The notes under the pieces were generated by a model. It was not told the DNA's origin and did not search any database. It worked only from the letters and a program-made list of their open reading frames with translations. A DNA stretch of 64,000 nt from Saprospirales bacterium (GTDB lineage: Bacteria; Bacteroidota; Bacteroidia; Chitinophagales; JADIYW01). The stretch is from NCBI GenBank assembly GCA_016711605.1, contig JADJSS010000009.1, positions 22,386-86,385 of the forward strand, given 5' to 3'. How positions within the stretch are numbered: position 1 is the stretch's first letter; every line of letters begins with the position of its first letter. Positions 1,375-63,716 of this stretch are shown one piece after another. A program made the translations under genes and the position numbers.

Positions 1375-2420
1375 TTGAAAAAATTATTAATCATATCATT
1401 TTTAGTTGTTTCTATACCATGTGCAAAAGCGCAACTTGGTGGAAGAAATGTATATGACTTTCTTTCGTTTCCAACTTCTTCTCGCATGGAAGGAATCAAC
1501 GGAACTTTGCAAAGCATGAAAGATGCTGATTTGTCGTTAGCTATTACTAATCCATGTTTTTTAGACAGCACTTATCACAAACAATTATCACTCACCAACT
1601 CATTTTATATTGACAAGATGAATGTAGGAAATATTGCATTTGCCTACACACATCCAAAGATAAAATCTACTATTGCTTATACGTTTCAATATGCATCCTA
1701 CGGTAAATTCGATGGTCGCGATGCTGCTGGAAATTCAACAGGCACGTTTCGTGCAAATGATTTCAACATGCAAGCTGGAATCGGCAGAAACTGGAAAAAT
1801 TTCTACTATGGTGTTAATTTAAAATTGATTGTATCGCAATTGGCAATGTATACGTCAGTCGGTTTTGCAACAGATGTTTCCTTAGCATATCATAGCGATA
1901 AAAAAATATTTCTGCGGTTGTTATTTTGCGAAATGCAGGCATGGAATTAAAACCTTACGACAAGCAAATTGGCAGAGAAAAATTGCCATTGCAACTCGAT
2001 GTTTCATTCTCAAAAAAATTCAAACATTTACCAATTACACTTTCTGTTACAGCGCATAATTTGCAAGTTTGGAAATTGACTTTTCCTGAGGAAGAACAGC
2101 AATCTATCTTGTTAGGTTCTACAAAAAAGAAAAGTAAAAGCACTGAAATAATTGATAATATTTTTCGCCATTTTGCTTTTGGTTTAGAAGCACAAGCAGG
2201 CAAACCAGTGCGTTTGCGTTTTGGATATAACCACATGCGCCGACAAGAATTAGGTGGTGTTGGAAAGAAGAAAGGTTTTTCAGGTTTTTCTGCAGGAATT
2301 GGTATCAACATCAAACAATTTGCATTCGATTATGCGTATGGCGCATATAGCAAAGTTGGCAGTGATCATCAATTAACTTTCAGAATTAAATTAGACGAAT
2401 TCGGACGAAAAGCGAAATAG
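1375..2420 (+). pseudogene. porQ: T9SS protein PorQ family, split by a frameshift in an A7 run
   Basis: Two overlapping ORFs (1375..1950 and 1926..2420) together read like one ~345-aa PorQ-type outer-membrane beta-barrel: a signal peptide, then AQLGGRNVYDFL, ending in GFSAGIGINIKQFAFDYAY. Frame 1 reads YHSDKK and frame 2 continues NISAVVILRNAGMELKPY. The switch lies at the A-run 1900-1906. Confidence 0.7.
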
Positions 2421-2423
2421 AAT

Positions 2424-2499
2424 AGTAGTAAGTCATAAGTTGTAAGTAGTTAGTATAACTTGCAAATAGAAAAAACTTACTACTCACTACATACTACTT
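2424..2499 (+). repeat. Phased-heptad hairpin between porQ and cmk, with its 3' arm ending at the cmk ATG
   Basis: AGTAGTA AGTCATA AGTTGTA AGTAGTT AGTATA (2424-2457) faces ACTTACT ACTCACT ACATACT ACTT (2475-2499). In-register complementarity is about 19 of 24. Confidence 0.6.
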
Positions 2500-3180
2500 A
2501 TGACTAATAAAATAAACATTGCCATCGATGGTTACTCAGCTTGCGGAAAATCATCAACTGCAAAACGAGTGGCAAAAAAACTCAGCTATATTTATATCGA
2601 TTCTGGTGCGATGTATCGTGCAGTAACACTTTATTTTCAACAGCATTTAATAGATTTAGATAATTTAGAAGGTATTGAAAATGCGTTGCCAAAAATTGAA
2701 ATAGATTTTAAAAAAGTGGGTGATGTACATCATACCTTTTTGAATGATGTTGATGTTGAAGATGAAATTCGCCAACCACGTGTGGCAGCTATTGTTTCCG
2801 AAGTAGCAGCGATGAGTAACGTGCGCAGAAAACTGGTGGAACAACAGCAAAAAATGGCGGCACAAAAAGGAGTAGTGATGGAAGGTCGCGATATTGGAAG
2901 CGTAGTCATTCCTGATGCTGAACTCAAATTTTTTATGACAGCAGATGTAGATGTGCGCACCAAACGCAGGCAAGATGAACTACTGAAAAAATCAGGAAAA
3001 TTATTTCCGTTGGAAGAACTAAAAGCCAATCTTTTGCATCGCGACAGAATTGATTCCACGCGCGAAGATTCACCATTAACAAAAGTTGTTGATGCAATAG
3101 AAATTGACACCACACATCTTACTTTAGAAAATCAAATTGATTTAATTTATAACAAAGCAATGCAGTTGGTTAACAATTGA
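2500..3180 (+). CDS. cmk: Cytidylate kinase
   Basis: 226 aa with the P-loop IAIDGYSACGKSSTAKRVAKKL, then IDSGAMYRA and GRDIGSVV blocks typical of Cmk. Confidence 0.9.
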   Translation: MTNKINIAIDGYSACGKSSTAKRVAKKLSYIYIDSGAMYRAVTLYFQQHLIDLDNLEGIENALPKIEIDFKKVGDVHHTFLNDVDVEDEIRQPRVAAIVSEVAAMSNVRRKLVEQQQKMAAQKGVVMEGRDIGSVVIPDAELKFFMTADVDVRTKRRQDELLKKSGKLFPLEELKANLLHRDRIDSTREDSPLTKVVDAIEIDTTHLTLENQIDLIYNKAMQLVNN

Positions 3181-3326
3181 TGTTTTGTCCTCGCTGTTAA
3201 ACTGAGCTTGTCGAAGTCCAATTAACGATTAACAATAGATAAATTCATACCTTTCTTAGTAAACTTTGCGTAAAATCCATTGCGCACTTTGCAGCTAAAT
3301 AACAAAAGTAATCGTAACTTTAGTAT

Positions 3327-4421
3327 ATGGAATTAGTAATAGACGATATTAAAATCAAAAACACTGCTGACGAATTAAAAACAAAAATAATTCGCAAAGA
3401 AGTGCAATTAGCAAGCAAAGAGTTTCGTGCAAAACATCCGATTTTACAGCATCAAAATGCCATCGGACTTTCTATTTTTTTAGTATGTGTTGCCATGATT
3501 ATTTTGTCCGCTTATTTATATTTAACACAAAAAATTGGTGTTATTGCGGTTATACTTTCTGTTGCATTCTGGACTTCATTTTTACATGAATTAGAACACG
3601 ATTTAATTCATTTCATGTACTTCAAAAAAAATAAATTCATCCAAAATTTAATGATGCTTGGTGTTTGGGTTTTTCGACCAATGACTATAAATCCGTGGTT
3701 GCGCAGAGAAATTCATTTTCATCATCATCGTGTTTCAGGCACCAAAACAGATATCGAAGAACGTGGTGTTACCAACGGTGAGAAATGGTCTTTCAAAAGA
3801 CTAATCACTACTGCAGATATTTTATTAGGTGGCGTTTTAAGAGGAGCCCGAATTCGCAAAGACATTATAGAAGCCGTAAAAAACGGAGAACTTCCAAGAG
3901 AACAAGCTCTTGAATTTAAGAAATTAAAAATCTATGGCATGTTGCCATTCACGCTTGGTTTATATTTAGTATGGTATTTATTTTTAGCGCATTATACAGT
4001 TCATTTTTTTACATCGATTTTAAATATAGACTACCAAAGTCCGGCAATTATACAAGCACAATTTAAATGGATAAATCCATTAGTAGCTATTTTAATTTTT
4101 CCAAATTTATTCCGAATGTTTTCGTTGCATTTTATTACTTCTAACATGCACTATTACGGCGATGTAGAAGCAGGAAATGTAATGCAACAAACGCAAGTGT
4201 TAAACAAGTGGTATTTCATTCCAATGCAATTATTTTGCTGCAATTTTGGTAGCACTCATGCTATACATCATTTTGTGGTCAACGAAACATTCTATGTTCG
4301 TCAATTCACCGCAGCTAAAGCTCATAAAGTAATGCAAGAGCAAGGTGTTCGATTCAATGATATTGCTTCTATTAAAAGAGCCAATCGTTTTTTTGAAACC
4401 AGTAGATTGAAAATAGCATAA
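3327..4421 (+). CDS. Fatty-acid-desaturase-like membrane di-iron protein
   Basis: 364 aa with several hydrophobic segments and three His boxes (HELEHDLIH, HFHHHRVSG, HAIHHF). Confidence 0.65.
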   Translation: MELVIDDIKIKNTADELKTKIIRKEVQLASKEFRAKHPILQHQNAIGLSIFLVCVAMIILSAYLYLTQKIGVIAVILSVAFWTSFLHELEHDLIHFMYFKKNKFIQNLMMLGVWVFRPMTINPWLRREIHFHHHRVSGTKTDIEERGVTNGEKWSFKRLITTADILLGGVLRGARIRKDIIEAVKNGELPREQALEFKKLKIYGMLPFTLGLYLVWYLFLAHYTVHFFTSILNIDYQSPAIIQAQFKWINPLVAILIFPNLFRMFSLHFITSNMHYYGDVEAGNVMQQTQVLNKWYFIPMQLFCCNFGSTHAIHHFVVNETFYVRQFTAAKAHKVMQEQGVRFNDIASIKRANRFFETSRLKIA

Positions 4422-4425
4422 CTAA

Positions 4426-5466
4426 ATGATGCTAAAAAGAGTCATTCAAAAATTTCTTGTTTTAGCATTTTATATGTTGTTTTTTGTGACAACAAATGCG
4501 CAATCTGCAATAGAATATTATAGAATTGGGAAACTTAATTACGACTCAAGTCAATATCAGTTGGCTATTTCCAATTTTAGTGAGTCAATATTATTATATC
4601 CAAATTTCGACAGTGCTTATTATTATCGTGGATATTGTTATTTACAACTAAAAGACACTATGAAGGCAGACAATGACTGGCAAACTGCCATCCAAATAAA
4701 TCCACGTTGTAATTTAGCAAGATTCTATCATGCTTCTGTAAAATATCATCATAATGACTTTTCCGGTTCTATAAATGAATTAGATACAATTTTATATTTG
4801 GATAAGAATGACAAAGAGGCATTATTTGCAAGAGCATATTTAAAACTGGAACTTAATGACAATGAAAATTCAGTAAAGGACTGGAATAAATATATACTCC
4901 TAAACAATAGGAATGACACTGCTTATTTTAACAGAGGTTTAGCATTTGAGAATCTTGAAAATTATAAACAAGCAGTAAAAGATTACAAGAAATCCATAGA
5001 AATAAATCCTCAGAATGCAAGTGCTTATTGCAACCTTGGAAATATTATGTACAATACAAAAAAATATAAGACCGCCTTATTGTATTTTGATAAAGCTATT
5101 CTATTTGATCCAAAATTAAAACAAGCTCATTATGGAAGAGGTTTAACAAACAATACAACTAATAATGATAAACTAGCAATAATTGATTTTAATAATGCAC
5201 TAACAATTGATCCAATATATGACAGAGCATATACAGGAAGAGGTGTGGCAAAATCACATCTTGGCAATTATAATGCAGCACTTCTTGATTATTCAAAATC
5301 TATTGAATTAAATTCTGGCAAATCAAATGCTGTTGCATACTATAATCGTGGCAATATGAAAGTAAAGCTGGCTGATATAGATGGTGCTTTACAAGATTAC
5401 AAAATTGCATTTAGTTATGACTATAAACCTGCAAAAAAAGAAATAGATGCACTTTTAAAGAAATAA
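4426..5466 (+). CDS. Secreted TPR-repeat protein
   Basis: 346 aa with an N-terminal signal peptide (AFYMLFFVTTNAQS). Repeated 34-aa TPR-like units carry AxxYxxRG and AIxxxP signatures throughout. It starts 4 nt after the upstream stop. Confidence 0.8.
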   Translation: MMLKRVIQKFLVLAFYMLFFVTTNAQSAIEYYRIGKLNYDSSQYQLAISNFSESILLYPNFDSAYYYRGYCYLQLKDTMKADNDWQTAIQINPRCNLARFYHASVKYHHNDFSGSINELDTILYLDKNDKEALFARAYLKLELNDNENSVKDWNKYILLNNRNDTAYFNRGLAFENLENYKQAVKDYKKSIEINPQNASAYCNLGNIMYNTKKYKTALLYFDKAILFDPKLKQAHYGRGLTNNTTNNDKLAIIDFNNALTIDPIYDRAYTGRGVAKSHLGNYNAALLDYSKSIELNSGKSNAVAYYNRGNMKVKLADIDGALQDYKIAFSYDYKPAKKEIDALLKK

Positions 5467-11394: not shown

Positions 11395-12029
11395 TTATTG
11401 TTTTTGTTTAATAAAAACATAAGCACCCTTTTTCGCGCCCCAAACTTGCAGATTATCTCTGTCCCAACCTCTGTCCCAACTGATAATTTTATCTTTATAA
11501 ATGGTCACTTCAGATGTTGCATAAGTTGCGCCACGCAAACTGCTTAAACATTCTTTTCCAGGCGTTTTACCAGAGAATGTACCATCCGTGTTTTTACGTA
11601 AATAAATAGCACAACCTTGTCTATCTACCAACGAATCGTTCGTGATTTTTTTTAATTTATCTAAATTATTCCATGCACCAATATATTGCTTGGTATTTTT
11701 CAGTTCATATACTTTACTCGCAATTACGGTATCATTTTCTAAATAAACATGGTAAACTCGTTGTCGATATGGTTTATCTAGTGCACTTACCAATGCTTGT
11801 TCTACATATAACCAATATCCATTTTTATTATTTTTCCAAAATTGTACCATATTTAAATGAACATCATAAAAATCGGTATCAGATTTTGCTTGTGCCTCAC
11901 TACTGAAACTTCCAGCCATGTTGGATACTACTTCTTTTAAATCTTTCTTTTTAGTTGAATGGATTGAGCAAACGAGAAAGGATTGCTGCAAAGTAAAATG
12001 AATAGAAAAATAATTTGCTGTTTTTTCAT
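11395..12029 (-). pseudogene. CpcT/CpeT-family (DUF1001) beta-barrel protein with its signal peptide in a different frame
   Basis: The body (GSFSSEAQAKSDTDFYDVHLNMV, GYWLYVEQA, KPYRQRVYHV) resembles the CpcT/CpeT family. A clean signal peptide, MKKQQIIFLFILLCSNPFSFAQS, starts at 12029 in another frame and stops after 30 codons. The frames meet at a T5 run (11948-11952, A5 on the coding strand). Confidence 0.55.
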
Positions 12030-14258: not shown

Positions 14259-14286
14259 GGACGCATTTATTGCGTCTTTTTTTATA
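14259..14286 (+). terminator. Rho-independent terminator after pckA
   Basis: GACGCA TTTAT TGCGTC followed by a T-run. Confidence 0.7.
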
Positions 14287-14301
14287 CTTTTGATAAGCAT
14301 A

Positions 14302-14332
14302 ACTCACGACTTACGACTCACAACTCACGACT
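14302..14332 (+). repeat. Phased heptad tract ACTCACG ACTTACG ACTCACA ACTCACG ACT directly upstream of the queE ATG
   Basis: Read directly from the sequence. The period is 7 nt and the tract ends 3 nt before the ATG at 14336. A near-identical tract lies inside pyrD (20802-20832). Confidence 0.8.
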
Positions 14333-14335
14333 AAA

Positions 14336-14950
14336 ATGAACTTCGATATTACAACACAAATTCCTGTTATGGAACATTTTTACACCATTCAAGGTGAAGG
14401 TTTCTATACAGGAAATGCTGCGTATTTTATACGATTGGCTGGCTGCGATGTAGGTTGTGTTTGGTGCGACGTAAAAGAATCGTGGACAGTTTCTGAAAAC
14501 CAATTGATGCTGGTAGACGATTTAATTGCAGAAGTATTAAAATATAAAGGAAGATTAATCGTTATTACAGGTGGTGAACCATTGATGTATGATTTATCAT
14601 TTCTGACAAAAAAATTAAAAGAAAACGGATTTCAAATTAATATTGAAACATCAGGTGCATATCCAATTTCTGGCGAATTGGATTGGATTTGTGTTTCACC
14701 GAAAAAATTTAAACAACCATTAAGAGAAGTAGTGCTAAAAGCAAACGAACTGAAATGCATCATTTTTAATAAATCTGACTTTGATTTTGCAGAACAAAAC
14801 TGCCTACTTGCTACTAAAGACTGCTTACTATACCTGCAAACCGAATGGAGCAAGCAAGAACAAATGCTACCATTGATGATTGATTATGTAAAACAAAATC
14901 CGAAATGGAAAATATCGCTGCAAACGCATAAATATTTGAATATTCCATAA
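14336..14950 (+). CDS. queE: 7-carboxy-7-deazaguanine synthase (radical SAM)
   Basis: 204 aa. It has FYTIQGEG, the radical-SAM cluster RLAGCDVGCVWCD, and GGEPL. Confidence 0.85.
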   Translation: MNFDITTQIPVMEHFYTIQGEGFYTGNAAYFIRLAGCDVGCVWCDVKESWTVSENQLMLVDDLIAEVLKYKGRLIVITGGEPLMYDLSFLTKKLKENGFQINIETSGAYPISGELDWICVSPKKFKQPLREVVLKANELKCIIFNKSDFDFAEQNCLLATKDCLLYLQTEWSKQEQMLPLMIDYVKQNPKWKISLQTHKYLNIP

Positions 14951-14980: not shown

Positions 14981-15084
14981 AGTGAAAGTGAGAATGAAAG
15001 TGAAAGTGGTGTAATTTTTGATTAATTTAATTTAATGAGAAATAAAATATTAATATTACTTTCTTTTTACTTACTACTTTCCAC
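14981..15084 (+). repeat. Imperfect purine-arm / pyrimidine-arm inverted repeat enclosing the start codon of the OmpA-family gene
   Basis: AGTGAAAGTGAGAATGAAAGTGAAAGTGGTG (14981-15012) faces TTACTTTCTTTTTACTTACTACTTTCCAC (15056-15084, inside the signal-peptide codons). The ATG at 15035 is in the loop. Confidence 0.5.
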
Positions 15085-17710: not shown

Positions 17711-17737
17711 TAACCACTAAGACACTAAGTACACAAA
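17711..17737. repeat. Left inverted repeat flanking the GxxExxY gene
   Basis: AACCACTAAGACACTAAGTACACAAAG. Its reverse complement matches 18166-18194 at about 23 of 27 positions. Confidence 0.7.
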
Positions 17738-17739
17738 GA

Positions 17740-18147
17740 TTATTTAGGTAAAACTGAAAAATGTTCATTTACCATTGGCACTAAACTCTTCGTTATATTT
17801 TCTGTGTTAAAGTTAATTAATAAACCTTTTGGTTTTTCTAATAGTTTCATATAAGTTAATAATTGAGCTTTGTATAAAGGATGAATTTCTTCTACAGCTT
17901 TTAATTCCACAATTATTAAATCTTCTACTAAAACATCTAACCTTAAGTTACAATCTAAATATTCATCTTTATAATGTACAGGAATTTTTATTTGTTGCGT
18001 TGTTTTCAATCCTTTCAATTCTAACTCTTTAACGAAACATCTTTGATATATAGATTCTAATAAACCAGGTCCAAGTTCTTTGTGTACTTCAATTGCACAG
18101 CCAACAATTTTATAAGCAATATTATTTATATAGGTTTGTGTAATCAT
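17740..18147 (-). CDS. GxxExxY protein (PD-(D/E)XK nuclease-like, PDDEXK_3 family)
   Basis: 135 aa. It has the family signature IEVHKELGPGLLESIYQRCFVKEL and DVLVEDLIIVELKA. Confidence 0.8.
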   Translation of the reverse strand: MITQTYINNIAYKIVGCAIEVHKELGPGLLESIYQRCFVKELELKGLKTTQQIKIPVHYKDEYLDCNLRLDVLVEDLIIVELKAVEEIHPLYKAQLLTYMKLLEKPKGLLINFNTENITKSLVPMVNEHFSVLPK

Positions 18148-18165
18148 CGGTTTTAATTATTTAAT

Positions 18166-18194
18166 CACTAAGTGTTCTTAGTGTCTCAGTGGTT
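18166..18194. repeat. Right inverted repeat flanking the GxxExxY gene
   Basis: CACTAAGTGTTCTTAGTGTCTCAGTGGTT, the partner of 17711-17737. Confidence 0.7.
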
Positions 18195-20376: not shown

Positions 20377-21456
20377 ATGTACAAAATCCTGCGATTTTTT
20401 TTGTTCAAATTAGATGCTGAGAAAGCACATCATTTTACATTGCGTTTAATGAATTTTATTATTAAAATTCCGTTTGCAAAATATTTTCTTACTAAAATTT
20501 ATTCAATAGAAAATAAAAAACTTGAACGAAATTTATTTGGTTTAACCTTTAAAAATCCTGTTGGCTTAGCAGCTGGTTTAGATAAAAATGCGGAATGTAT
20601 TGATGCGTTTGCTGCTGTTGGTTTTGGCTTTATTGAAATTGGAACTGTAACACCTTTACCACAAGATGGAAATGAACAGCCACGTTTATTTCGCTTAATT
20701 GAAGACAAAGCTATTATAAATCGAATGGGTTTTAATAATGGTGGAATGGCTGCTGTGAAAAGTAATATAGTAAGCAGTAAACAGTATGCAGTAAAAAATA
20801 AACTCACGACTCACAACTCAAGAATCACGACTATCATTGGTGGCAACATTGGTAAAAACAAAAATACACCAAACGAAAACGCAGTTGATGATTACATAAA
20901 ATGTTTTAATGAATTGTATGATGTTGTAGATTATTTTGTAGTAAATGTAAGTTCACCAAACACACCGAATTTACGTGCTTTGCAAGAGAAAGAACCGTTG
21001 AAAAAAATCTTGTTTCAATTGCAGGAAATTAATCAACAAAAAACAAAACCGAAACCAATTTTATTAAAAATTGCGCCTGATTTAACTAACGAACAATTAG
21101 ATGATATTATCGAAATTGTTTTTGATACCAACTTAGCTGGAATTGTAGCAACAAATACTACTATTTCAAGAGAAAATTTATCGACAGAAAAAGAAAAAAT
21201 TGATGCAATTGGAAATGGTGGTTTGAGCGGAAAACCATTGACAAAAAAATCAACAGAAATAATAAAATATATTGCAGAAAAATCAGAACACAAAATTCCT
21301 ATTATTGCAGTTGGTGGAATTATGACTGCAGATGATGCGATAGAAAAGCTCAACGCTGGCGCAAGTTTAGTACAGTTATATACTGGTTTTATTTACGAAG
21401 GTCCGAGTTTGATAAAGGAAATTAATATACGCATTCTCAACTTTTCTAAAGTTTAA
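20377..21456 (+). CDS. pyrD: Dihydroorotate dehydrogenase (quinone), class 2
   Basis: 359 aa colinear with E. coli PyrD ([58 protein letters not shown]). A TATATTTG -7-like box lies at about 20359. Confidence 0.9.
20802..20832 (+). repeat. Phased heptad tract ACTCACG ACTCACA ACTCAAG AATCACG ACT inside the pyrD coding sequence
   Basis: It is the same word family as 14302-14332. It encodes [10 protein letters not shown] within a loop about 14 aa longer than in E. coli PyrD. Confidence 0.75.
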
Positions 21457-26565: not shown

Positions 26566-29500
26566 ATGGAAACTACAACAACACAACCAACAAGAGCTAT
26601 CAGAAAGGTAGCCGTTCTCGGTTCAGGTGTGATGGGTTCTGGTATCGCATTGCACTTTGCCAACATTGGCGTCGAAGTGCTTTTGCTCGATATCGTACCT
26701 TTTGATCTGAAAGAAGAAGAAAAAGCAAATCCGAAAATGCGCAACAAAATTGTAAATGATGCATTTGCATTTGCTTTAAAATCAAAACCTGCTCAAGCGT
26801 ACAATCCTGAATCGGCAAAAAAAGTTACGCTCGGAAATTTTGACGATGACATGCCGAAAATAAAAGATTGTGATTGGATTATTGAAGTTGTAATTGAAAG
26901 ATTAGACATTAAAAAACAAGTGTTTGAAAAGGTAGATAATCTTCGCAAGAAAGGTTCATTGGTTACCTCAAATACATCTGGTATTCCAATTCATTTAATG
27001 GCAGAAGGCAGAAGCGAAGATTTTCAACAAAATTTTTGTGGTACACACTTTTTCAATCCACCTCGCTACATGCGTTTATTGGAGATTATTCCTACCGCAA
27101 CAACTAGTCAAAGCGTAATTGATTTCTTAATGCATTACGGTGATGTTTTCTTAGGAAAAGAAACCGTGTTATGTAAAGACACACCAGCGTTTATTGCAAA
27201 TCGTGTTGGTGTTTATGCAATGGCAAAAATTTTCCAACTAACACAAGAATTAGGTTTAACTATTGAAGAAGTAGATAAATTAACTGGCTCTGCAATTGGT
27301 CGTCCTAACACAGGAACGTTCAAACTTTCTGATTTAGTTGGAAATGATACAGGAACAAAGGTAATGTTAGGTATCAAAGAAAATTGTCCGAATGACGAAC
27401 AAGCATCTGCATTCGATGTTCCAAAATATGTTCAGTTTTTGTTAGATAATAAATTTTTTGGCAATAAAACTAAAAAAGGATATTACTATAAAGATGAAAA
27501 ACGAAATTCGTTTTCACTTCGTTTAGATACATTAGTATATGAACCAACAGGAAAACCAAAATTTCCATCTTTAGACGCTTCAAATAAATCTGAAAATTTA
27601 GCAGGAAAAGTAAATGCATTTATTAATGCAGACGACAAAGGTGCACAATTAGTAAAACGTTCGTTGAGCGGTTTATTTGCTTATGTTTCTAATCGTGTTC
27701 CAGAAATTTCTGATGTGTTATATGCTGTCGATGATGCCTTACGCGCTGGTTTTGCTTGGGACATTGGTCCTTTCCAATATTGGGACATTGTTGGCATTGA
27801 AAAAGGTATCGAATTAGCAAAAGCAGATGGTTTATCCATTGGCACTTGGGTAACGGAAATGTTAGCAGCAGGCAATACTACTTTCTATAAAGTAGAAAAT
27901 GGTGTAAAAAAATATTACGATCAACAATCAAAATCATACAAAGCAATTCCAGGTGCTGAATCATTTATCATTTTAGATAATTTACGTAGCAATAAACCAG
28001 TTTGGAAAAACAGTGGTGGTACGTTACATGATATTGGCGATGGTGTTTTGAATTTAGAATTCACTTCAAAAATGAATTCATTAGGTGGTGATGTGTTAGC
28101 AGCTATTAATAAATCTATCGAAATTGCAGAAGGTGGTTACAAAGGCTTAGTAATCGGAAACGATGCTACCAATTTTTCTGTTGGCGCCAACTTAATGATG
28201 ATTTCCATGTTGGCAATGGATCAGGAATATGACGAATTAGATATGGCTGTTCGTCAGTTTCAGCAAACTACGATGCGCTGCAGATACTCAGCAATTCCAG
28301 TAGTTTCCGCACCACACGGCATGACACTTGGTGGTGGTTGCGAAGTAACCATGCACTCTAATGCAGTGGTAGCAGCAGCAGAAACTTATATTGGTTTAGT
28401 AGAAGTTGGTGTTGGTTTAATTCCAGCTGGTGGTGGCACTAAAGAATTGACTTTAAGAACTTCTGATAGTTTCAAAAATGGTGATCCGATGTTACAAACG
28501 TTGCAAGATAATTTCTTATCAATTGCAATGGCAAAAGTGGCAACTTCAGCAGCAGAAGCAATCGATTTAAACTTAATGCGCAAAGGTGTTGACAGAGTAG
28601 TTGTAAATGGCAAACGTGTAATTGCAGAAGCAAAACGCGAAGTGTTAGAATTATCTGCAAAAGGTTACACGCAAACTGCTCATAGAAATGACATCACTGT
28701 TTTAGGTAGAACTGGTTTAGGTACACTAACAGTTGGTGTAGAATCATTCGTAGCAGGTGGTTATATTTCAGCTCACGATGCAGTAATTGCTAAAAAAGTA
28801 GCATACGTAATGTGCGGTGGCGATTTATCAGCACCAACACAAGTAAACGAACAATATTTATTGGATTTAGAAAGAGAAGCATTCTTATCGCTTTGCGGTG
28901 AAAAGAAAACACTTGAAAGAATCCAGGCAATGTTGACAACTGGTAAACCATTGAGAAACAATTCAAAATCTAAAATTCAAAATACAATGCAAGAAGCATA
29001 TATAGTAGCAGGTTATCGCAGTGCGATAGGCAAAGCAAAAAAAGGCGGTTTCCGCTTTTATCGTCCAGATGATTTAGGTGCTGATGTGGTAAAACATTTA
29101 GTAGCATCAGTTCCACAATTAGATCCATCACGCATTGATGATTTAATTTGTGGAAACGCCATTCCAGAAGCAGAACAAGGTATGCAAATCGGTCGTATGA
29201 TCGTGTTACGTGCAGGTTTACCATTGTCAATTGGTGGTGTAACTGTTAATCGTTATTGCGCATCAGGTTTAGAAACCATTGCCATGGCAACAGCAAAAAT
29301 TAAAGCAGGAATGGCAGACTGTATCATCGCTGGTGGTGTAGAATCTATGTCTTTATTACCAATGACTGGCTGGAGAACGGTATTAAATTATGGCATCGCA
29401 TCAACCACACCAGATTACTATTCTTCAATGGGTTTAACAGCAGAAGCTGTTGCAACGCAATACGGAATTTCTCGTTTAGACCAAGATACGTTTGCATACA

Positions 29501-30165
29501 ACTCGCATGTAAAAGCAATTGCCGCAATAGAATCAGGAAAATTTAAAGATGAAATTGTACCTGTAACAGTGGAAGAAGTTTATTTGAAAGACAATAAAAG
29601 AAAAGTTCGTTCTACTATAGTGGATACAGATGAAGGTGCGCGTAAAGACACAACTGTAGAAGGCCTTGCAGCATTAAAAGCAGTATTTGCAGCAAAAGGT
29701 TCTGTAACTGCAGGTAACTCATCTCAAACATCTGATGGCGCAGCATTTGTGTTAGTGATGTCAGAAAAAATGGTAAAAGAACTAAACATCGAACCAATCG
29801 CAAGATTAGTAACAAGTGCAGTTGTTGGTTGCGAGCCACGCATCATGGGTATTGGTCCTGTAGTAGCAATACCACGTGCATTACAATTAGCAGGTTTAAA
29901 AATCGAAGACATTGAAATGATTGAATTAAACGAAGCATTTGCTGCACAATCATTAGCAGTAATTCGCACATTGGGTTTAAATCAGGATATCATTAATCCA
30001 AACGGTGGTGCCATTGCATTAGGTCATCCACTAGGTTGTTCAGGTGCAAAATTATCTGTACAATTAATTAATGAAATGCGTCGTCAAAACAAACGCTACG
30101 GTATGGTGTCAGCTTGTATAGGTGGTGGACAAGGTATCGCAGGAATTATAGAAAGACTTAAATAG
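26566..30165 (+). CDS. Fused 3-hydroxyacyl-CoA dehydrogenase / enoyl-CoA hydratase / acetyl-CoA C-acyltransferase (FadB-like plus FadA-like in one ORF)
   Basis: Residues 1-798 hold an NAD Rossmann fold (VAVLGSGVMGSGIA) and a crotonase-like region, ending TGKPLRN. A 9-aa linker, NSKSKIQNT, follows (28960-28986). Residues 808-1199 are a complete thiolase starting MQEAYIVAGYRSAIGKA, with NRYCASGL, GNSSQTSDGAA and CIGGGQG. The ORF track shows no in-frame stop between the parts. Confidence 0.85.
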   Translation: METTTTQPTRAIRKVAVLGSGVMGSGIALHFANIGVEVLLLDIVPFDLKEEEKANPKMRNKIVNDAFAFALKSKPAQAYNPESAKKVTLGNFDDDMPKIKDCDWIIEVVIERLDIKKQVFEKVDNLRKKGSLVTSNTSGIPIHLMAEGRSEDFQQNFCGTHFFNPPRYMRLLEIIPTATTSQSVIDFLMHYGDVFLGKETVLCKDTPAFIANRVGVYAMAKIFQLTQELGLTIEEVDKLTGSAIGRPNTGTFKLSDLVGNDTGTKVMLGIKENCPNDEQASAFDVPKYVQFLLDNKFFGNKTKKGYYYKDEKRNSFSLRLDTLVYEPTGKPKFPSLDASNKSENLAGKVNAFINADDKGAQLVKRSLSGLFAYVSNRVPEISDVLYAVDDALRAGFAWDIGPFQYWDIVGIEKGIELAKADGLSIGTWVTEMLAAGNTTFYKVENGVKKYYDQQSKSYKAIPGAESFIILDNLRSNKPVWKNSGGTLHDIGDGVLNLEFTSKMNSLGGDVLAAINKSIEIAEGGYKGLVIGNDATNFSVGANLMMISMLAMDQEYDELDMAVRQFQQTTMRCRYSAIPVVSAPHGMTLGGGCEVTMHSNAVVAAAETYIGLVEVGVGLIPAGGGTKELTLRTSDSFKNGDPMLQTLQDNFLSIAMAKVATSAAEAIDLNLMRKGVDRVVVNGKRVIAEAKREVLELSAKGYTQTAHRNDITVLGRTGLGTLTVGVESFVAGGYISAHDAVIAKKVAYVMCGGDLSAPTQVNEQYLLDLEREAFLSLCGEKKTLERIQAMLTTGKPLRNNSKSKIQNTMQEAYIVAGYRSAIGKAKKGGFRFYRPDDLGADVVKHLVASVPQLDPSRIDDLICGNAIPEAEQGMQIGRMIVLRAGLPLSIGGVTVNRYCASGLETIAMATAKIKAGMADCIIAGGVESMSLLPMTGWRTVLNYGIASTTPDYYSSMGLTAEAVATQYGISRLDQDTFAYNSHVKAIAAIESGKFKDEIVPVTVEEVYLKDNKRKVRSTIVDTDEGARKDTTVEGLAALKAVFAAKGSVTAGNSSQTSDGAAFVLVMSEKMVKELNIEPIARLVTSAVVGCEPRIMGIGPVVAIPRALQLAGLKIEDIEMIELNEAFAAQSLAVIRTLGLNQDIINPNGGAIALGHPLGCSGAKLSVQLINEMRRQNKRYGMVSACIGGGQGIAGIIERLK
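28960..28986 (+). repeat. Spacer-like phased tract (TTCAAAA TCTAAAA TTCAAAA TACA) translated as the FadB-FadA linker
   Basis: It has the same A/C/T-only heptad style as the leader tracts at 30211-30260 and 47092-47119, and it ends at the thiolase ATG (28987). Confidence 0.6.
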
Positions 30166-30172
30166 AATTATA

Positions 30173-30260
30173 GAGATGAGATCTGAGATGATGAAATAAA
30201 AAGATAATTATCTCTCATCTCTTTTCTCATTTCTCAAATCTAAAATCTAAACATCTCAAC
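30173..30260 (+). repeat. Phased-heptad hairpin between fadBA and the acyl-CoA dehydrogenase gene
   Basis: GAGATGA GATCTGA GATGATG (30173-30193) is followed by an A-rich loop. Then TCTCTCA TCTCTTT TCTCATT TCTCAAA TCTAAAA TCTAAAC ATCTCAAC (30211-30260) abuts the ATG at 30261. CTCATCTC and GAGATGAG give a perfect 8-bp core. Confidence 0.75.
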
Positions 30261-32039
30261 ATGGAAAAAATATTAGCACTTAAAGGTGGAGAATTTATTA
30301 TCAAAGATTCAACTACCGAAATGGTTTTCACGCCAGAAGACTATACCGAAGAACAACTCATGGTTCGCGCAATGGCATCTGATTTTATTGAGAAAGAAGT
30401 AATGCCACGCTGGAAAGAAATTGAAAAGCAAGAACCCAACGTAACTACCGATTTGCTGAGAAAAGCAGGTGAATTAGGTTTGCTTTCTACACCTATTCCA
30501 GAAGAATACGGTGGAATGCAACAAGATGTAATTACAGGTTGCATTTTAGCAGAAGAATATGGCAGAACAGGTTCTTTTGCTACCACAGTAATTTGCCATA
30601 TTGGTATAGGAACGTTACCAACTTTATATTTCGGTACGGAAGAACAAAAACAAAAGTATTTACCAAAATTAGGCAGTGGCGAATGGCCTGCGTCATATTG
30701 TCTTACGGAGCCAAGTTCTGGCTCAGATGCATTAGGAGCAAAAACAACAGCTACACTTTCTGAAGATGGAAAATCATGGATTCTGAACGGACAAAAAATG
30801 TGGATCACAAACGCAGGTTTTGCTGAATTATTTACGGTGTTCGCAAAAATTGATGGTAAAGAATTTACTGCATTTTATGTAGAAAAAGGAACGCCTGGTT
30901 TAACGTTGGGTGCCGAAGAAGATAAAATGGGTATCAAAGGTTCTTCTACAAGACAAGTGTTTTTTGAGAATTGTAAAATACCTGTAGAAAACATGTTAGG
31001 CGAACGTGGCAAAGGCCATTTAATTGCGTTTAATATTTTAAATATTGGTCGTTATAAATTAGCAGCAACTGCACTTGGTGGTGCTCGTGAAGCATTTAAT
31101 ATGGCTGTAAAATATGCTAATGAAAGAACACAATTTGGAAAATCGTTAGATACATTTGGTGCTATTCAATTTAAGATTGCAGAAATGGCAATCAAATTAT
31201 TTGCATTAGAAGTAGCAACTTACCGATGTGCAGAAGACATCGAAAACACGGAACATATTTTAAAAGAGCAAGGGTTGGATTTTGCGAAATCATTATTAGG
31301 TGGCGCAGAAGAGTTTGCAATTGAATGTTCAATTGTAAAAGTATATGGCTCTGAAGTGCTGGATTATATAGTAGATGAAAACGTACAGATTCACGGCGGA
31401 ATGGGTTACTCAGAAGAAACCAGTGCTGCGCGTGCATACAGAGATTCTCGTATTGCGCGTATCTACGAAGGCACGAGCGAAATCAATCGCTTGTTATCTA
31501 TCGATATGTTGTTGAAACGTGCAATGTCTGGCAAAATCGATTTGATGACTCCAGGCATGGCTATTCAAAAAGAATTGATGTCTGTTCCAGACTTTTCAGA
31601 CGATAGCGACTCTCAATTTGCAGCTGAAGAACGCGCAATGAAGAATGCGAAGAAGGCATTCTTGTTAGTAGCTGGTGGTGCTGTTCAAAAACTAATGGCA
31701 AAAATGAAAGACGAGCAGGAAATTATTATGAATGCGTCTGACATGTTGATCGATGTGTATGTAATGGAATCCTTATTGTTACGTGTGAAAAAGATCTATG
31801 AAAAAGGTGAAAAAAATGATCAGGTGTATATCGATATTTTAAAAGTATTTTTCAATGATGCATTAAATCGTATCAATACAAAAGGAAAAGATGCATTGCA
31901 ATCTTTTGCAGAAGGTGATGAATTGCGCATTATGCTGATGGGTTTGAAACGTTTTACAAAATACGAACCCGTAAATGTAAAAGAAGCACGCAGAAGAATT
32001 GCTGCAAAAGTTATTGAAGGTGGAAAATATAATTTGTAA
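30261..32039 (+). CDS. Acyl-CoA dehydrogenase (long form with C-terminal extension)
   Basis: 592 aa. It has ACAD blocks (CLTEPSSGSDA, WITNAG, YRDSRIARIYEGTSEINR). Confidence 0.9.
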   Translation: MEKILALKGGEFIIKDSTTEMVFTPEDYTEEQLMVRAMASDFIEKEVMPRWKEIEKQEPNVTTDLLRKAGELGLLSTPIPEEYGGMQQDVITGCILAEEYGRTGSFATTVICHIGIGTLPTLYFGTEEQKQKYLPKLGSGEWPASYCLTEPSSGSDALGAKTTATLSEDGKSWILNGQKMWITNAGFAELFTVFAKIDGKEFTAFYVEKGTPGLTLGAEEDKMGIKGSSTRQVFFENCKIPVENMLGERGKGHLIAFNILNIGRYKLAATALGGAREAFNMAVKYANERTQFGKSLDTFGAIQFKIAEMAIKLFALEVATYRCAEDIENTEHILKEQGLDFAKSLLGGAEEFAIECSIVKVYGSEVLDYIVDENVQIHGGMGYSEETSAARAYRDSRIARIYEGTSEINRLLSIDMLLKRAMSGKIDLMTPGMAIQKELMSVPDFSDDSDSQFAAEERAMKNAKKAFLLVAGGAVQKLMAKMKDEQEIIMNASDMLIDVYVMESLLLRVKKIYEKGEKNDQVYIDILKVFFNDALNRINTKGKDALQSFAEGDELRIMLMGLKRFTKYEPVNVKEARRRIAAKVIEGGKYNL

Positions 32040-36831: not shown

Positions 36832-38889
36832 ATGAGAAGAAAATTTTTCTTTTTATCTTTTATGGTAATTGCGGTTTTAAGTAAAGCACAGTTATTTACA
36901 GAAAGTTTCAGCACATACACGGTTGGTTCAAACTTAACTACCAACGGTTGGAGCCAGTGTGCTTCAGGTACAGTTCCTTTAACTATAAATGGAACAAACC
37001 TTACCTATCCAGGATATTATTCTACCAACACCAATAATTCCTTATATTTTAATTCCACTGCATCTAACTATGGTGGTTATTGTAAAACATGGACTGGTGT
37101 AAACAGCGGCTCCATCTATATGTCTTTCTTATTTAGAGATTCTGTAATTGCTGCAGCTGCAACATCAGGTGATTACTTCATAACTTTTGGTTCAGACTGG
37201 TTAAATAATGCTGGTCGTGTTTTATTTAAATCCAGCGGTGGTTCTTTTCAGTTTGGAACAAGAAAATCAACAGGTGCTGATGCGTATTCTACTACAACGT
37301 ATACACCTAATCAAACACATTTAGTTGTCTTAAAATATACTTTTAATACTGGTACAACTACAGATGACGTTGTTGGTATTTATGTCGATCCAACTTTGCC
37401 AAGCACAGAACCTGCAACGTTTACAGTTACTGCACCAGCAACTAATGATTTTACAAATTCAATCGGAAATGTTTTTTTACGTTTAAATATGTCAACAGCA
37501 AATGTTCCAAATGCACATATTGATGCTATTAAAGTAGCAACATCATGGTCTGATTTATTCGGAACCGCATGTACACCAACAACAACTAATCTGAATCAGG
37601 CAATTTGTCAAGGTGCAAGTATCGTGTTTAATGGAAATACAATCACTGGTGCTGGAACTTTTAGAGATACACTACAAACCACATTAGGTTGCGATAGCTT
37701 TATTGTGTTGAATGTATCTGTAAGACAAAGTCCGACTACAACATTAAATCAGGCAATTTGTCAAGGTGCAAGTATTGTGTTTAATGGAAATACAATCACT
37801 GGTGCTGGAACTTTCAGAGATACACTACAAACTTCATTTGGTTGCGATAGTTTTATTGTGTTTAATGTATCTGTACGACAAAGTCCGACTACAACATTAA
37901 ATCAGGCAATTTGTCAAGGTGCAAGTATTGTGTTTAATGGAAATACAATCACTGGTGCTGGAACTTTCAGAGATACCTTACAAACTTCATTTGGTTGCGA
38001 TAGCTTTATTGTGCTGAATGTATCTGTAAGACAAAGTCCGACTACAACATTAAATCAGGCAATTTGTCAAGGTGCAAGTATTGTGTTTAATGGAAATACA
38101 ATCACTGGTGCTGGAACTTTCAGAGATACACTACAAACTTCTTTAGGTTGCGATAGTTTTATTGTGTTAACAGTTGCAGTAACGTCTTTACCTAATATCA
38201 CCGTTAACTCACCTTCTATTTGCAGCGGACAAACAGCAACCTTAACGGCAAACAACGGCACAAGCTATACATGGACTGGTGGTTTAACAGGAAATCCTGC
38301 AACCACGCAAACATTGAATAGCAATGCATCATTCACAGTTACTGGAACGGTTGGAAATTGTTCAAATACAGCTGTTGCAACTGTAACCGTAAATTCAACA
38401 CCAGCGCAATCTTTTATTACACAAGGACACGATACATTATACTCAAGCACTGTAGTAGCAAACGCTACTTATAATTGGTATTTAAATGGAAATACGACTC
38501 CAATTGCAACCACCAATTCTTCTTTCTATAAATTTACTACACAAGGTACTTATACCGTTAAAGTAGTAAGCAACGATTGTTCTTCGCCAATATCAACAGG
38601 TTATCTAACAACATCATTAGGTGTTAGGAATAGCAGTTCTGTAAAATCATTTGCTATTTTTCCAAATCCTACTGATAGTAGATTGGTGTTAGATATTAGT
38701 TTGCTTAAAACTGCAAACGTTCAATTAAAAATATTCAGTACCGAAGGCAAAGAAATGTTGTATAAGAATTTTGGAACCGTTAAAGATTTGAATGAAACAT
38801 TAAACATCAGCGAATTTGCAAAAGGTATTTATATACTGAAATTACAGGTTGATGATGAAATTAATTATCAGAAAGTAGTGAAACAATAA
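36832..38889 (+). CDS. T9SS-secreted adhesin-like protein (LamG-like N-domain, 4 Cys-containing 51-aa repeats, type A C-terminal sorting domain)
   Basis: 685 aa with a signal peptide. The C-terminus FAIFPNPTDSRLVLDI...GIYILKLQVDDEINYQKVVKQ fits the Por_Secre_tail type. Confidence 0.8.
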   Translation: MRRKFFFLSFMVIAVLSKAQLFTESFSTYTVGSNLTTNGWSQCASGTVPLTINGTNLTYPGYYSTNTNNSLYFNSTASNYGGYCKTWTGVNSGSIYMSFLFRDSVIAAAATSGDYFITFGSDWLNNAGRVLFKSSGGSFQFGTRKSTGADAYSTTTYTPNQTHLVVLKYTFNTGTTTDDVVGIYVDPTLPSTEPATFTVTAPATNDFTNSIGNVFLRLNMSTANVPNAHIDAIKVATSWSDLFGTACTPTTTNLNQAICQGASIVFNGNTITGAGTFRDTLQTTLGCDSFIVLNVSVRQSPTTTLNQAICQGASIVFNGNTITGAGTFRDTLQTSFGCDSFIVFNVSVRQSPTTTLNQAICQGASIVFNGNTITGAGTFRDTLQTSFGCDSFIVLNVSVRQSPTTTLNQAICQGASIVFNGNTITGAGTFRDTLQTSLGCDSFIVLTVAVTSLPNITVNSPSICSGQTATLTANNGTSYTWTGGLTGNPATTQTLNSNASFTVTGTVGNCSNTAVATVTVNSTPAQSFITQGHDTLYSSTVVANATYNWYLNGNTTPIATTNSSFYKFTTQGTYTVKVVSNDCSSPISTGYLTTSLGVRNSSSVKSFAIFPNPTDSRLVLDISLLKTANVQLKIFSTEGKEMLYKNFGTVKDLNETLNISEFAKGIYILKLQVDDEINYQKVVKQ
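37582..38193 (+). repeat. Four tandem, near-identical 153-bp (51-codon) repeats inside the adhesin gene
   Basis: The unit ACTACAACATTAAATCAGGCAATTTGTCAAGG... recurs at 37735, 37888 and 38041, and the first copy begins near 37582. The protein unit is TTLNQAICQGASIVFNGNTITGAGTFRDTLQTSFGCDSFIVLNVSVRQSP, with only a few substitutions between copies. Confidence 0.9.
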
Positions 38890-45330: not shown

Positions 45331-45371
45331 TTTACTATTTTTAATATGAAGTAATTTAGTATGCGGTGTGC

Positions 45372-45406
45372 AGTTACTGTTTACTGCCTACTTTTTACTA
45401 AATTCT
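45372..45406 (-). repeat. Phased heptads (AGTAnnn x5 on the coding strand) between rpoA and rplQ
   Basis: On the plus strand: AGTTACT GTTTACT GCCTACT TTTTACT AAATTCT. A partial complementary arm lies at about 45346-45366. Confidence 0.6.
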
Positions 45407-45411
45407 ACCAT

Positions 45412-46407: not shown

Positions 46408-46474
46408 AATTAGTTATTTATTTTTAAAGGTTAATTCTGAATATCCATAAAGGACTTCGCTTCAAAAAAAATTA

Positions 46475-47083: not shown

Positions 47084-47091
47084 TTTTATTT

Positions 47092-47119
47092 AAGATTTGA
47101 GATTTAAGATTTGAGATTT
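47092..47119 (-). repeat. Phased heptads AAATCTC AAATCTT x2 (coding strand), 8 nt upstream of the rpsD ATG
   Basis: On the plus strand: AAGATTT GAGATTT AAGATTT GAGATTT. Confidence 0.75.
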
Positions 47120-47151
47120 AAAGTTCAAATACTAATCTATTATTTTATTTA

Positions 47152-53065: not shown

Positions 53066-53160
53066 TTTATTTTTTTTGTTTAGACCGCTTAGATGTGCGA
53101 CTTAAATTGTTGTCAATTCAGTTTCCCACCTTCACTTTAATTTTTAAACTAATTTATTTA

Positions 53161-63028: not shown

Positions 63029-63030
63029 TC

Positions 63031-63048
63031 GTTACTTTCGTTACTTTT
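63031..63048 (-). repeat. Tandem 9-mers AAAAGTAAC GAAAGTAAC abutting the rpsL start codon
   Basis: On the plus strand, GTTACTTTC GTTACTTTT lies 2 nt from the ATG. Confidence 0.6.
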
Positions 63049-63057
63049 TTAAAATTT

Positions 63058-63096
63058 CGGACTGCAAAGGTAGAGATAAGAGGTAAGAATACCAAA
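63058..63096 (-). promoter_or_regulatory. Candidate str-operon promoter (-33 TTTG, -7 TACCTTTG, then CAGTCCGAAATTTT)
   Basis: The coding strand reads TACCTTTGCAGTCCGAAATTTT (-7 box at 63065-63072), with a TTTG about 20 nt upstream (63093-63096). Confidence 0.5.
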
Positions 63097-63716
63097 CATA
63101 AACTTAAAAAAGTTATGTTTTTTTTGTAGTCTTACCTTCCCTGCGAAGGCAGTAACTACAAGAAGAATTTGTTCTAAAAACGGAACGTTCCTCCTGAAGT
63201 GGGCGCAAAGATAGTAATTTATTCTCAATTGTGGAAAATTATTGCATATTAATTTCGGGTTAAGATTGTGTTTGGTAAGTGATAAGGAATGAGTTGTTAG
63301 TAAAATATTACTTAATCTATTGATTATCAATTTGAATTAAAGTAATACTATAGTAGATTTTTTAAAAAATTAATCTTTTTTTTAATTTATTAAGCAGCCA
63401 AATGCATAATCTATTAAAAGAGTTTATGTTTTTCTAACGAACAACGATATGCAGATTGAACTAAAATTAAGAAGTACAAAATATTTTATAATATGTTGAT
63501 TTTGTAAAATCGGTCAGGAGACCGAGTGAATTAGTACACACGAGTGATACTGCTGAAGACTAACGCGAAAATTGAATTTGCTAAAATGAACTCTTCAGTT
63601 ATTCATTACAACCATAATATTGAAAATTATATTCTGACAATCCGGCCTGGTTAACGTATATACATACCTTACCATTTTAAAATCTTGATTCCATCTAATG
63701 TTTGTATTAATATCTT

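Follow-up and report, generated by a model that had tools for sequence, protein, structure and literature searches.

Why should the spacers of a bacterial genome be written in short words repeated in strict phase, and why should such tracts run up to the start codon of the next gene? The question is raised by a 64,000-nt stretch of DNA from a Saprospirales bacterium (contig JADJSS010000009.1; hereafter, the window), and above all by its spacer between fadA, which encodes a thiolase, and acd, which encodes a FadE-type acyl-CoA dehydrogenase. In this spacer, an arm of G-containing heptads begins 6 nt past the thiolase stop codon, and a C-type tract (TCTCTCA...ATCTCAAC, 30211-30260) adjoins the acd ATG at 30261. 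We find that the feature truly belongs to a known class of heptanucleotide tandem repeats, the one described for cyanobacteria, and that tracts of this kind evolve fast and pervade the spacers of Bacteroidota. In relatives, the layout is that of a cassette, with a G arm, a small open reading frame (ORF) of the S23p/Avd-like or GxxExxY PD-(D/E)XK-like kind, and a C arm, like the 23S rRNA intervening sequence. The explanation that we favor, with our confidence about evenly divided, is that the window feature is an ORF-less derivative of an intervening-sequence-like selfish cassette, combined with slippage-driven repeats, its G-poor leader facing the start codon. New here are the order of the arms, with the G arm first and the C arm at the ATG, the turnover among close relatives, and the heptad arms that flank small co-oriented genes.

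Period-7 tracts in the spacers of Bacteroidota

The window has a G+C content of 32%, and its closest named proteins come from metagenome-assembled genomes (MAGs) of Chitinophagales/Saprospirales. Self-matches at shifts of 4-12 nt in its 6.2 kb of spacers were compared with 200 dinucleotide-preserving shuffles. Period 7 alone was enriched, with 7 tracts against 1.62 expected (1/200 shuffles) and, at a stricter cut, 4 against 0.45 expected (0/200 shuffles). The shuffles rule out a chance or compositional artefact, and an independent listing by Tandem Repeats Finder gives the same tracts. Coding DNA has periods 6, 9, and 12 only, plus 2 period-7 cases, in pyrD and at the fadB-fadA junction. A preliminary description of this DNA, made from the letters alone, had quoted tract sequences at 6 sites and proposed that phased tracts would exceed shuffled spacers. 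All of the quoted sequences are present, the excess is real, and the phased heptads hold at every site but rpsL, which has 2 copies of a 9-mer.

Among the matches listed for the acyl-CoA dehydrogenase of the window, the best identity was 64%, and none was from a close relative. These matches supplied a distant set of 80 loci (1.33 Mb), drawn from a range of Bacteroidota with some Ignavibacteriota, which holds 63 strong period-7 tracts against 2-16 for each other period from 4 to 12. Words of the window (ACTCACG/ACTTACG, AGTAAGC/AGTATGC, and TCTCAAA) are seen again in these distant genomes. The recurrent word families, with the host genome sampled through 64 kb, are TCTCAAA, TACTCAA, ACTCACG, and AGTANGC, and their units are imperfect. 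Most tracts (108 of 136) lie outside called ORFs, and 52 are within 25 nt of a start. Tract length peaks at 4 units, a peak confounded by the detection threshold; the idea of "five units for a pentamer" was set aside on this same threshold-confounded test. The preliminary description knew of no described element with such an architecture, but start-adjacent heptamer repeats had in fact been published (PMC4679880; bioRxiv 10.1101/2022.06.06.494920).

Turnover of hairpins and words among relatives

Close relatives were retrieved via PyrD, InfA, and the acyl-CoA dehydrogenase, by protein searches and exact-protein look-ups, and 2 of these loci, L081 and L097, belong to the same species as the window. 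Locus L002 of the distant set is probably a paralogue, since it shares a MAG with L082, whose acd copy is syntenic. Among the relatives, cassettes and hairpins come and go as insertions and deletions (indels), and units are re-worded in concert.

The fadA-acd hairpin of the window (30172-30234) has a minimum free energy (MFE) of −24.4 kcal/mol and a z-score relative to shuffles of −3.5. In L081, it differs by one base. In L097, whose acyl-CoA dehydrogenase is 99% identical, the hairpin is of the same word type with another sequence, and in L100 and L101, it is present with sequences that are different again. In L082, it is wholly absent, and the distance from stop to start is 5 nt. Where it is found in L097, L100, L101, and L055, the stem lies just 3′ of the fadA stop and is followed by 25-35 unpaired, G-poor nt up to the ATG. 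The Pedobacter-like loci L055 and L075 share the same fadA-acd hairpin, which in L055 closes a 20-nt loop and in L075 encloses about 480 nt that include a four-helix-bundle ORF; both the GAGAT/ATCTC word type and the spacer are those of the window feature.

If the stems themselves were what selection maintains, then they could be RNase III substrates or barriers to 3′ exonucleases, letting fadBA mRNA and acd mRNA decay separately, with the heptads incidental. The stems are of about 20 bp and significantly stable at 3 window sites, one stands just past the fadA stop in 5 lineages despite sequence change, and RNase III is the enzyme that cleaves the stems in rRNA intervening sequences (PMC4990558). 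Read-through from fadA into acd is also to be expected, because the hairpin has no terminator tail: its tail reads AAAUCUAAAAUC, no terminator-like site occurs in 29800-30500, and an intrinsic terminator was rejected as an identity for the hairpin on this ground. No plus-strand TAnnTTTG box occurs in the spacer either. Yet folding does not favor the sense over the antisense strand (of 12 cases, it is more stable in 5 and less stable in 7), most tracts have no partner arm, L082 does without the hairpin, and the period of 7, the in-frame copies, and the ORF cargo are left unexplained. Nor did RNAalifold find any consensus pairs in 4 orthologous fadA-acd spacers, because the hairpins occupy different registers. 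The processing-hairpin reading of the preliminary description draws on analogy with 23S rRNA intervening sequences, and neither a strand-specific folding advantage nor alignment-level covariation was found for it; we regard such an account as improbable.

The hairpins that had been described across the window hold at fadA-acd, at cmk (2424-2484; −17.6 kcal/mol, z = −1.85, DNA stem score 16), and at rpoA-rplQ (45411-45346; −16.8 kcal/mol, z = −3.46). They do not hold at queE (z = +0.6), rpsD (z = −1.0), or rpsL (z = +1.8), which are single tracts without a partner arm that fold no better than shuffles. These sites turn over as well. The queE tract is kept in L082 with every unit shifted in concert from ACTCACG towards ACTTACG, a C-to-T change. 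In the window, it fills the gap from a TAnnTTTG match (14285-14292) to the queE ATG; in L085, the tract is missing and a TAnnTTTG match lies close to the ATG. TAnnTTTG is the −7 promoter box of Bacteroidota, and it is not enriched in the window (106 matches vs 115 expected). The rpoA-rplQ hairpin is kept in L090 and L095, and elsewhere (TACTCAN)n or a 20-nt spacer stands instead. The spacers of the ribosomal-protein operon form a mosaic of presence and absence, with the words (AAATCTN)n, (TACTCAN)n, or (AAATCGT)n.

Several further observations were made at these positions. At one position downstream of acd, L064 has (ATCCTAA)8 (11866-11922) and L077 has (ACCCTAA)7 (11866-11915), a clear whole-array word replacement; the second word is that of the plant telomere repeat. 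Between fadA and the acd hairpin, at the position corresponding to about 30166 of the window, L097 carries a two-gene cassette (2145-4500) of RAMA/DUF4357 and GmrSD_N genes, which we take to be defense related, and this insertion makes the spacer a strain-level insertion hotspot. In the Pedobacter-like L076 (9805-9885) and L077 (9800-9870), the fadA-acd spacer is filled by a GC-rich, near-perfect palindrome, GCGCATCGTCATTGCGAGGCACGAAGCAATCT..., which resembles CGTC-tagged repetitive extragenic palindromic (REP) elements. Several hairpin families therefore share such spacers.

Heptad arms around small ORFs

A link to protein-coding cassettes is seen in the fadB-fadA spacer. In L081 and L097, this spacer holds a 117-aa TIGR02436 gene between inverted heptad-like arms (GTATTGCGTA... 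/ ...CGCAATACGCAATACG), and the whole arm-ORF-arm unit is missing from the window, where only a 31-nt tract stands, which makes it a within-species indel. TIGR02436 is the four-helix-bundle, Avd-like family of 23S rRNA intervening-sequence proteins (S23p, PF05635). The four-helix-bundle ORF occurs in relatives at the same slots and at no site of the window, which has a GxxExxY gene (TIGR04256; 17740-18147) instead. That gene, which L082 lacks, lies between inverted arms of 8-nt repeats (17713-17736 and 18166-18194), whose inverted-repeat score of 18.5 exceeds the highest control value, 14.

All loci together contain 15 TIGR02436 and 4 TIGR04256 genes. Among 427 small genes taken as controls, the inverted-repeat score is 10 at the 95th percentile and 14 at most. 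The flanking inverted repeats of 13 of 18 non-redundant small ORFs score above 10, and those of 10 of the 18 exceed the control maximum. Tandem heptads make up the arms, as in AGATGGG AGATAGT AGATGTG AGATTTG AGAC before the ORF and GTCTCAA ATCTCAA ATCTCAT TTCTCAA ATCT after it. Of the 18 small ORFs, 11 have a period-7 tract no more than 100 nt away, compared with 9.1% of other genes (Fisher p = 1e-7), and every small ORF that has 2 known neighbors (17/17) is co-oriented with both. In the literature that we covered, which was partial, no paper links TIGR02436 or GxxExxY to heptad inverted arms or places such cassettes in mRNA spacers. As a separate observation, near-identical tract-bearing units (AAAATTAAAAGTTAAAAGTACGAAGTACGAA, GAGATATGAGAGGTGAAATGTAAAATGAAAAA) are repeated in the Chitinophagales MAG locus L007 (1887-3723 and 11874-13441), some of them about 200-300 nt apart, and may form an array of small cassettes.

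This architecture bears on a mechanical account in which the tracts are pure replication-slippage microsatellites, made because the replisome favors 7-nt units, and selfish genes merely use the same permissive spacers. Units do change in concert, and the L097 fadA-acd spacer also took up the unrelated RAMA and GmrSD cassette. As relayed by PMC4679880, Mrazek et al. 2007 found heptanucleotide units to be the commonest class of long simple sequence repeats in most repeat-rich prokaryote genomes surveyed, and proposed a polymerase-linked slippage. Slippage yields direct repeats, yet inverted heptad arms are found in 21 hairpins and in the flanks of 13/18 small ORFs; arms and ORF are gained or lost jointly within one species, and the same few words recur in distant genomes. 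We consider it very improbable that slippage is the whole story.

Polarity and the start codon

G exceeds C in the 5′ arm of 20 of the 21 heptad-armed hairpins. Reading the other strand leaves this order unchanged, so that it belongs to the element and is independent of the strand chosen. On the sense strand, in 1.6 Mb of related loci, G<C holds for 42, against 8, of the tracts that lie up to 25 nt before a start, so the G-poor tract at the start codon that had been described for the window generalizes. The skew of background leaders is mild (G 0.127, C 0.166). Among tracts near a stop codon only, the lean is the opposite one (G>C in 17 cases against 8), and the G-rich tracts that adjoin starts are mostly G arms preceding four-helix-bundle ORFs. 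When the start-proximal units are aligned, they give the meta-consensus WCTNAAW, with a weak preference of the CTNA core for a phase of about −9 to the ATG that is inflated by orthologues. The published heptamer TAACTGA, rotated to ACTGATA, fits most positions of this consensus.

A serious rival begins from this placement. If the G-poor heptad arrays were selected platforms for a single-stranded RNA binder of the oligonucleotide/oligosaccharide-binding (OB) fold, for example S1 or a cold-shock protein, with each domain taking about one heptad, then they could replace the Shine-Dalgarno sequence, and an upstream G arm could tune access by pairing with part of the array. Bacteroidota and cyanobacteria have few Shine-Dalgarno sites. 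The tracts end 0-11 nt before the ATG with a strong sense-strand polarity, the last CTNA core of the consensus falls mostly between −7 and −12, and single tracts fold worse than shuffles. The authors of PMC4679880 proposed that S1, Csp (cold-shock protein), or CsrA binds the TAACTGA repeats, whose rotated form resembles our meta-consensus. The conservation of rpsD is what an enhancer of translation fits best: its tract is found in 8 of 9 relatives, and its (AAATCTN)4 leader has a mean identity of 84% over 6 lineages vs 53% at four-fold sites of the flanking rpsK and rpsD, which suggests that it is under constraint, although repeated words inflate an ungapped identity. Against such a role stand the orthologues that have no tract (queE in L085, acd in L082, rpsD in L095, and rplQ in L087, L088, and L096), the presence of the same tracts in frame in pyrD and as G-type arrays after stop codons, and the weakness of the orthologue-inflated phase preference. 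One of the 3 readings in the preliminary description, an unstructured enhancer of translation, would be compatible with the polarity, with the rpsD tract, and with the positive folding z-scores of single tracts, though queE of L085 has no tract. On balance, we judge the rival of dedicated translation elements rather unlikely.

Tracts inside genes

The pyrD tract is translated in frame within a hypervariable loop. In an alignment of 40 PyrD proteins, the distant members have a short loop after NRMGFNN, and the close relatives have 10-30 additional residues that are translated heptads: KSQISNLKSQI corresponds to (TCTCAAA)n and STVHSPQ to (TCCACAG)n, and the window has AGTAAGC-type units followed by ACTCACG-type units. 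The DNA of L085 has (TCTCAAA)4 at this position. Between the window and L081, the loop differs by 2 substitutions that copy the adjacent 14-nt double unit, which looks like conversion. The tract does not fold stably (−2.7 kcal/mol, z = +1.7). At their C-termini, PyrD sequences P0011, P0012, and P0015 terminate in ETRDKRQEN, which looks like translated (AGAGACA)n; if so, the ORF enters a downstream heptad tract.

At the fadB-fadA junction (28957-28990), a heptad tract stands in place of the stop codon of fadB and the spacer, and FadB and the thiolase therefore form a single ORF of 1199 aa (26566-30165). The fadB stop is retained in L100 and L101, and L100, L101, and L082 have 2 genes. The fadA ATG is kept in the window fusion, so that separate initiation is still possible.

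Weighing a proposed selfish origin

What an explanation has to account for is the observed periodicity, distribution, turnover, in-frame copies, cassette link, and polarity. If the favored account holds, in which selfish cassettes lie at the origin of the window feature, then the window hairpins would be versions of the cassette without its ORF, and single tracts would be solo arms or local products of slippage, which would also drive the re-wording of units. Selection at the start codon would set the polarity, with only a G-poor arm of the WCTNAAW type tolerated beside the ATG. Such an arm would give an unstructured leader, in a lineage that is presumably Shine-Dalgarno poor. The stem, by analogy with rRNA intervening sequences, may be a site for RNase III or for mRNA stabilization. 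The preliminary description had offered a decayed hairpin-type mobile element as one of 3 readings, and this is the best supported of them, given a site that is absent or re-worded among relatives, an ORF in the loop, and a unit that is a within-species indel; for the solo tracts, a cassette origin is something that we infer.

A number of observations weigh against this account. Plain slippage could create single tracts independently of cassettes, and about two-thirds of the 100 intergenic tract regions are single arms with no partner. The arm words are very different among cassettes, so that no single transposing sequence is defined, and the GxxExxY cassette of the window has its C-rich arm first. 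No transposase was seen, and comparison by eye of the filled window site with the empty site of L082, whose flanks have diverged, gave no target-site duplication. The cassette-tract events are not independent, because the loci are partly orthologous, and the start-proximal polarity weakens to 18 vs 6 (p = 0.02) after a very conservative clustering by any shared 12-mer. Finally, conservation of the rpsD tract goes far beyond that of synonymous sites, and one slot holds GAGAT/ATCTC-type hairpins in 2 different orders, observations that look more like function than selfish drift.

A more far-reaching proposal, possible but doubtful when taken as a whole, is that heptad-armed hairpins are the termini of undescribed intervening-sequence-like mobile cassettes. 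Each cassette would carry a gene for a pentamer-forming four-helix bundle (S23p/Avd-like) or for a GxxExxY PD-(D/E)XK nuclease-like protein. Riding host operons, the cassettes would colonize mRNA spacers and tolerant protein loops in Bacteroidota and perhaps in cyanobacteria. They would leave ORF-less miniature derivatives behind. The heptad arrays would be what the cassette protein or RNase III recognizes, and the G-poor arm would have been co-opted as a Shine-Dalgarno-independent leader of the downstream gene.

Other features of the window

The genes that flank the tracts were assigned by NCBIfam as cmk, queE, the FadB-thiolase fusion, acd, and the genes for S12, S4, and L17. The positions of all tracts and hairpins are collected in Table 1. 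The rpsL pair is a weak member of the class at best, because it has another period and only 2.2 copies. The hexamer tract past the queE stop codon fits the G-rich tendency of stop-proximal tracts.

Table 1. Heptad tracts, hairpin parts, and related repeats of the window, in window coordinates.
Feature	Position	Strand	Units	Remarks
fadA-acd hairpin, G-containing 5′ arm	30172..30193	+	A GAGATGA GATCTGA GATGATG	paired in MFE fold
fadA-acd hairpin, loop	30194..30210	+		A-rich, 17 nt; from sequence and fold
fadA-acd hairpin, C-containing 3′ arm, paired part	30211..30234	+	TCTCTCA TCTCTTT TCTCATT TCT	from sequence and fold
fadA-acd spacer, unpaired G-free heptad run	30235..30260	+	CAAATCTAAAATCTAAACATCTCAAC	26 nt; leader of acd, ATG at 30261
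pyrD in-frame tract	20769..20832	+	AGTAAGC AGTAAAC AGTATGC AGTAAAA, AATAA, ACTCACG ACTCACA ACTCAAG AATCACG ACT	
fadB-fadA tract	28960..28990	+	AATTCAA AATCTAA AATTCAA AATACAA	in place of fadB stop codon and spacer
GxxExxY gene with inverted arms	17713..18194	-	8-nt repeats	
cmk spacer	2424..2499	+	AGTAnnn G arm 2424-2457, loop, ACTnACT C arm 2475-2499	adjoins cmk ATG at 2500
queE single C-type tract	14302..14332	+	ACTCACG ACTTACG ACTCACA ACTCACG ACT	ATG at 14336
rpsD leader	47088..47121	-	AAATCTC AAATCTT AAATCTC AAATCTT AAAT	ends 5 nt before ATG
rpoA-rplQ hairpin	45346..45411	-	AGTAAAA AGTAGGC AGTAAAC AGTAACT	from fold
rpsL 9-mer pair	63029..63047	-	AAAGTAAC G/A	2.2 copies, before rpsL ATG
G-type hexamer tract	14981..15008	+	(AGTGAA)n	begins about 30 nt past queE stop codon

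Other elements that may be structured lie beside ribosomal-protein genes. In the S14-S8 spacer (53066-53160, minus strand), an element AAGTGAAGGTGGGAAACTGA...TTAAGTCNCACATCTAAGCGGTCTAAA is conserved across 10 relatives, and in the S4-rpoA spacer (46408-46474), a hairpin is conserved in 10 relatives, with arms that vary by lineage and are self-complementary by eye. Both may be ribosomal-protein autoregulatory leaders, and neither matches an Rfam family. On the minus strand 5′ of rpsL (63100-63215), a TATCTTTG match (63206-63213) precedes some 110 nt that, by eye, appear structured (...CCCACTTCAGGAGGAACGTTCC...GCCTTCGCAGGGAAGG...) and end in a hairpin and a run of T; a second match, TACCTTTG, comes after them (63065-63072). 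The region is possibly a leader or a small RNA, and Rfam again gives no match. Over the whole window, no covariance model of Rfam matches at the gathering score, a tRNA scan finds no tRNA, and there is no rRNA gene. A 153-nt unit is repeated in 3.8 copies at 95% identity (37594-38168) within a 685-aa ORF (36832-38889), which probably encodes a repeat-domain surface protein.

Implications

Start-adjacent heptamer repeats have been a puzzle of cyanobacteria and giant sulfur bacteria since 1990. Their spread across Bacteroidota, the fixed order of G arm then C arm, and the association with four-helix-bundle and GxxExxY genes offer a concrete and testable origin for them, and the cassette link suggests a role for 2 very abundant families of "hypothetical" genes. 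The polarity rule bears on how start codons are recognized in phyla that rely little on Shine-Dalgarno pairing. Heptad tracts also create strain-level indels, in-frame inserts, and gene fusions, all of which can mislead annotation and assembly.

Comparison with known systems

Several families of short mobile or palindromic elements share parts of this architecture. Miniature inverted-repeat transposable elements combine terminal inverted repeats with a target-site duplication; inverted arms are present here, and no such duplication was seen by eye against the empty site of L082, with its diverged flanks. REP elements have been proposed to stabilize upstream mRNA. Like REPs and REPINs (PMC3116915, PMC3733652), the elements described here are short extragenic palindromes in transcribed spacers that are present in some strains and absent from others. 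REPs, however, are high-copy, near-identical sequences of 20-40 bp with a GTAG/CGTC tag and a RAYT Y1 transposase, whereas the arms here have an internal period, vary by site, and lack a constant tag. In the window, for which no dedicated domain scan of all ORFs was made, no Y1_Tnp gene was noticed; one is present in the relatives L092 and L094. Rickettsia palindromic elements, reportedly described by Ogata and colleagues in 2000, are said to insert in frame into genes and to be tolerated there as extra loops. The in-frame insert of pyrD is tolerated in the same way, but the pyrD copy is not palindromic, and the lineage and sequences are unrelated.

The closest parallel for the tracts themselves is with heptamer repeats. 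In cyanobacteria, Mazel and colleagues reportedly described the STRR heptanucleotide repeats in 1990. TAACTGA direct repeats were found a few nt 5′ of start codons in Beggiatoaceae, 15 cyanobacteria, and 5 Bacteroidetes, accompanied by further heptamer repeats and by in-frame copies in ORFs, and CspB is cited there as binding heptamers with one protein per unit (MacGregor 2015, PMC4679880). Nostoc has contiguous heptamers near the start codons of dozens of genes (bioRxiv 10.1101/2022.06.06.494920). The tracts described here share with these repeats a 7-nt unit, a small number of copies per tract (4-5 in the window), many loci per genome, an intergenic position in forward orientation a few nt before a start, occasional in-frame copies, and a sporadic distribution among relatives. 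They appear, from 64 kb of the host genome, to have many imperfect words per genome, where the published repeats have one dominant word (TAACTGA, CCCCAGT), and they differ in their ordered G-arm/C-arm hairpins and their link to four-helix-bundle and GxxExxY genes, which are unreported in that literature.

The cassettes, in turn, are most like the 23S rRNA intervening sequences of Coxiella and Leptospira. The Coxiella element is selfish and carries an S23p ORF, and its inverted repeats form a 28-bp stem that is cut by RNase III (PMC4990558). The elements described here occupy mRNA spacers and one coding loop, with no rRNA helix, and their arms are tandem heptads. What the two have in common is a pair of terminal inverted repeats that can form a stem, an optional ORF of the TIGR02436/PF05635 family, co-transcription with the host RNA, and the sporadic distribution of a selfish element.

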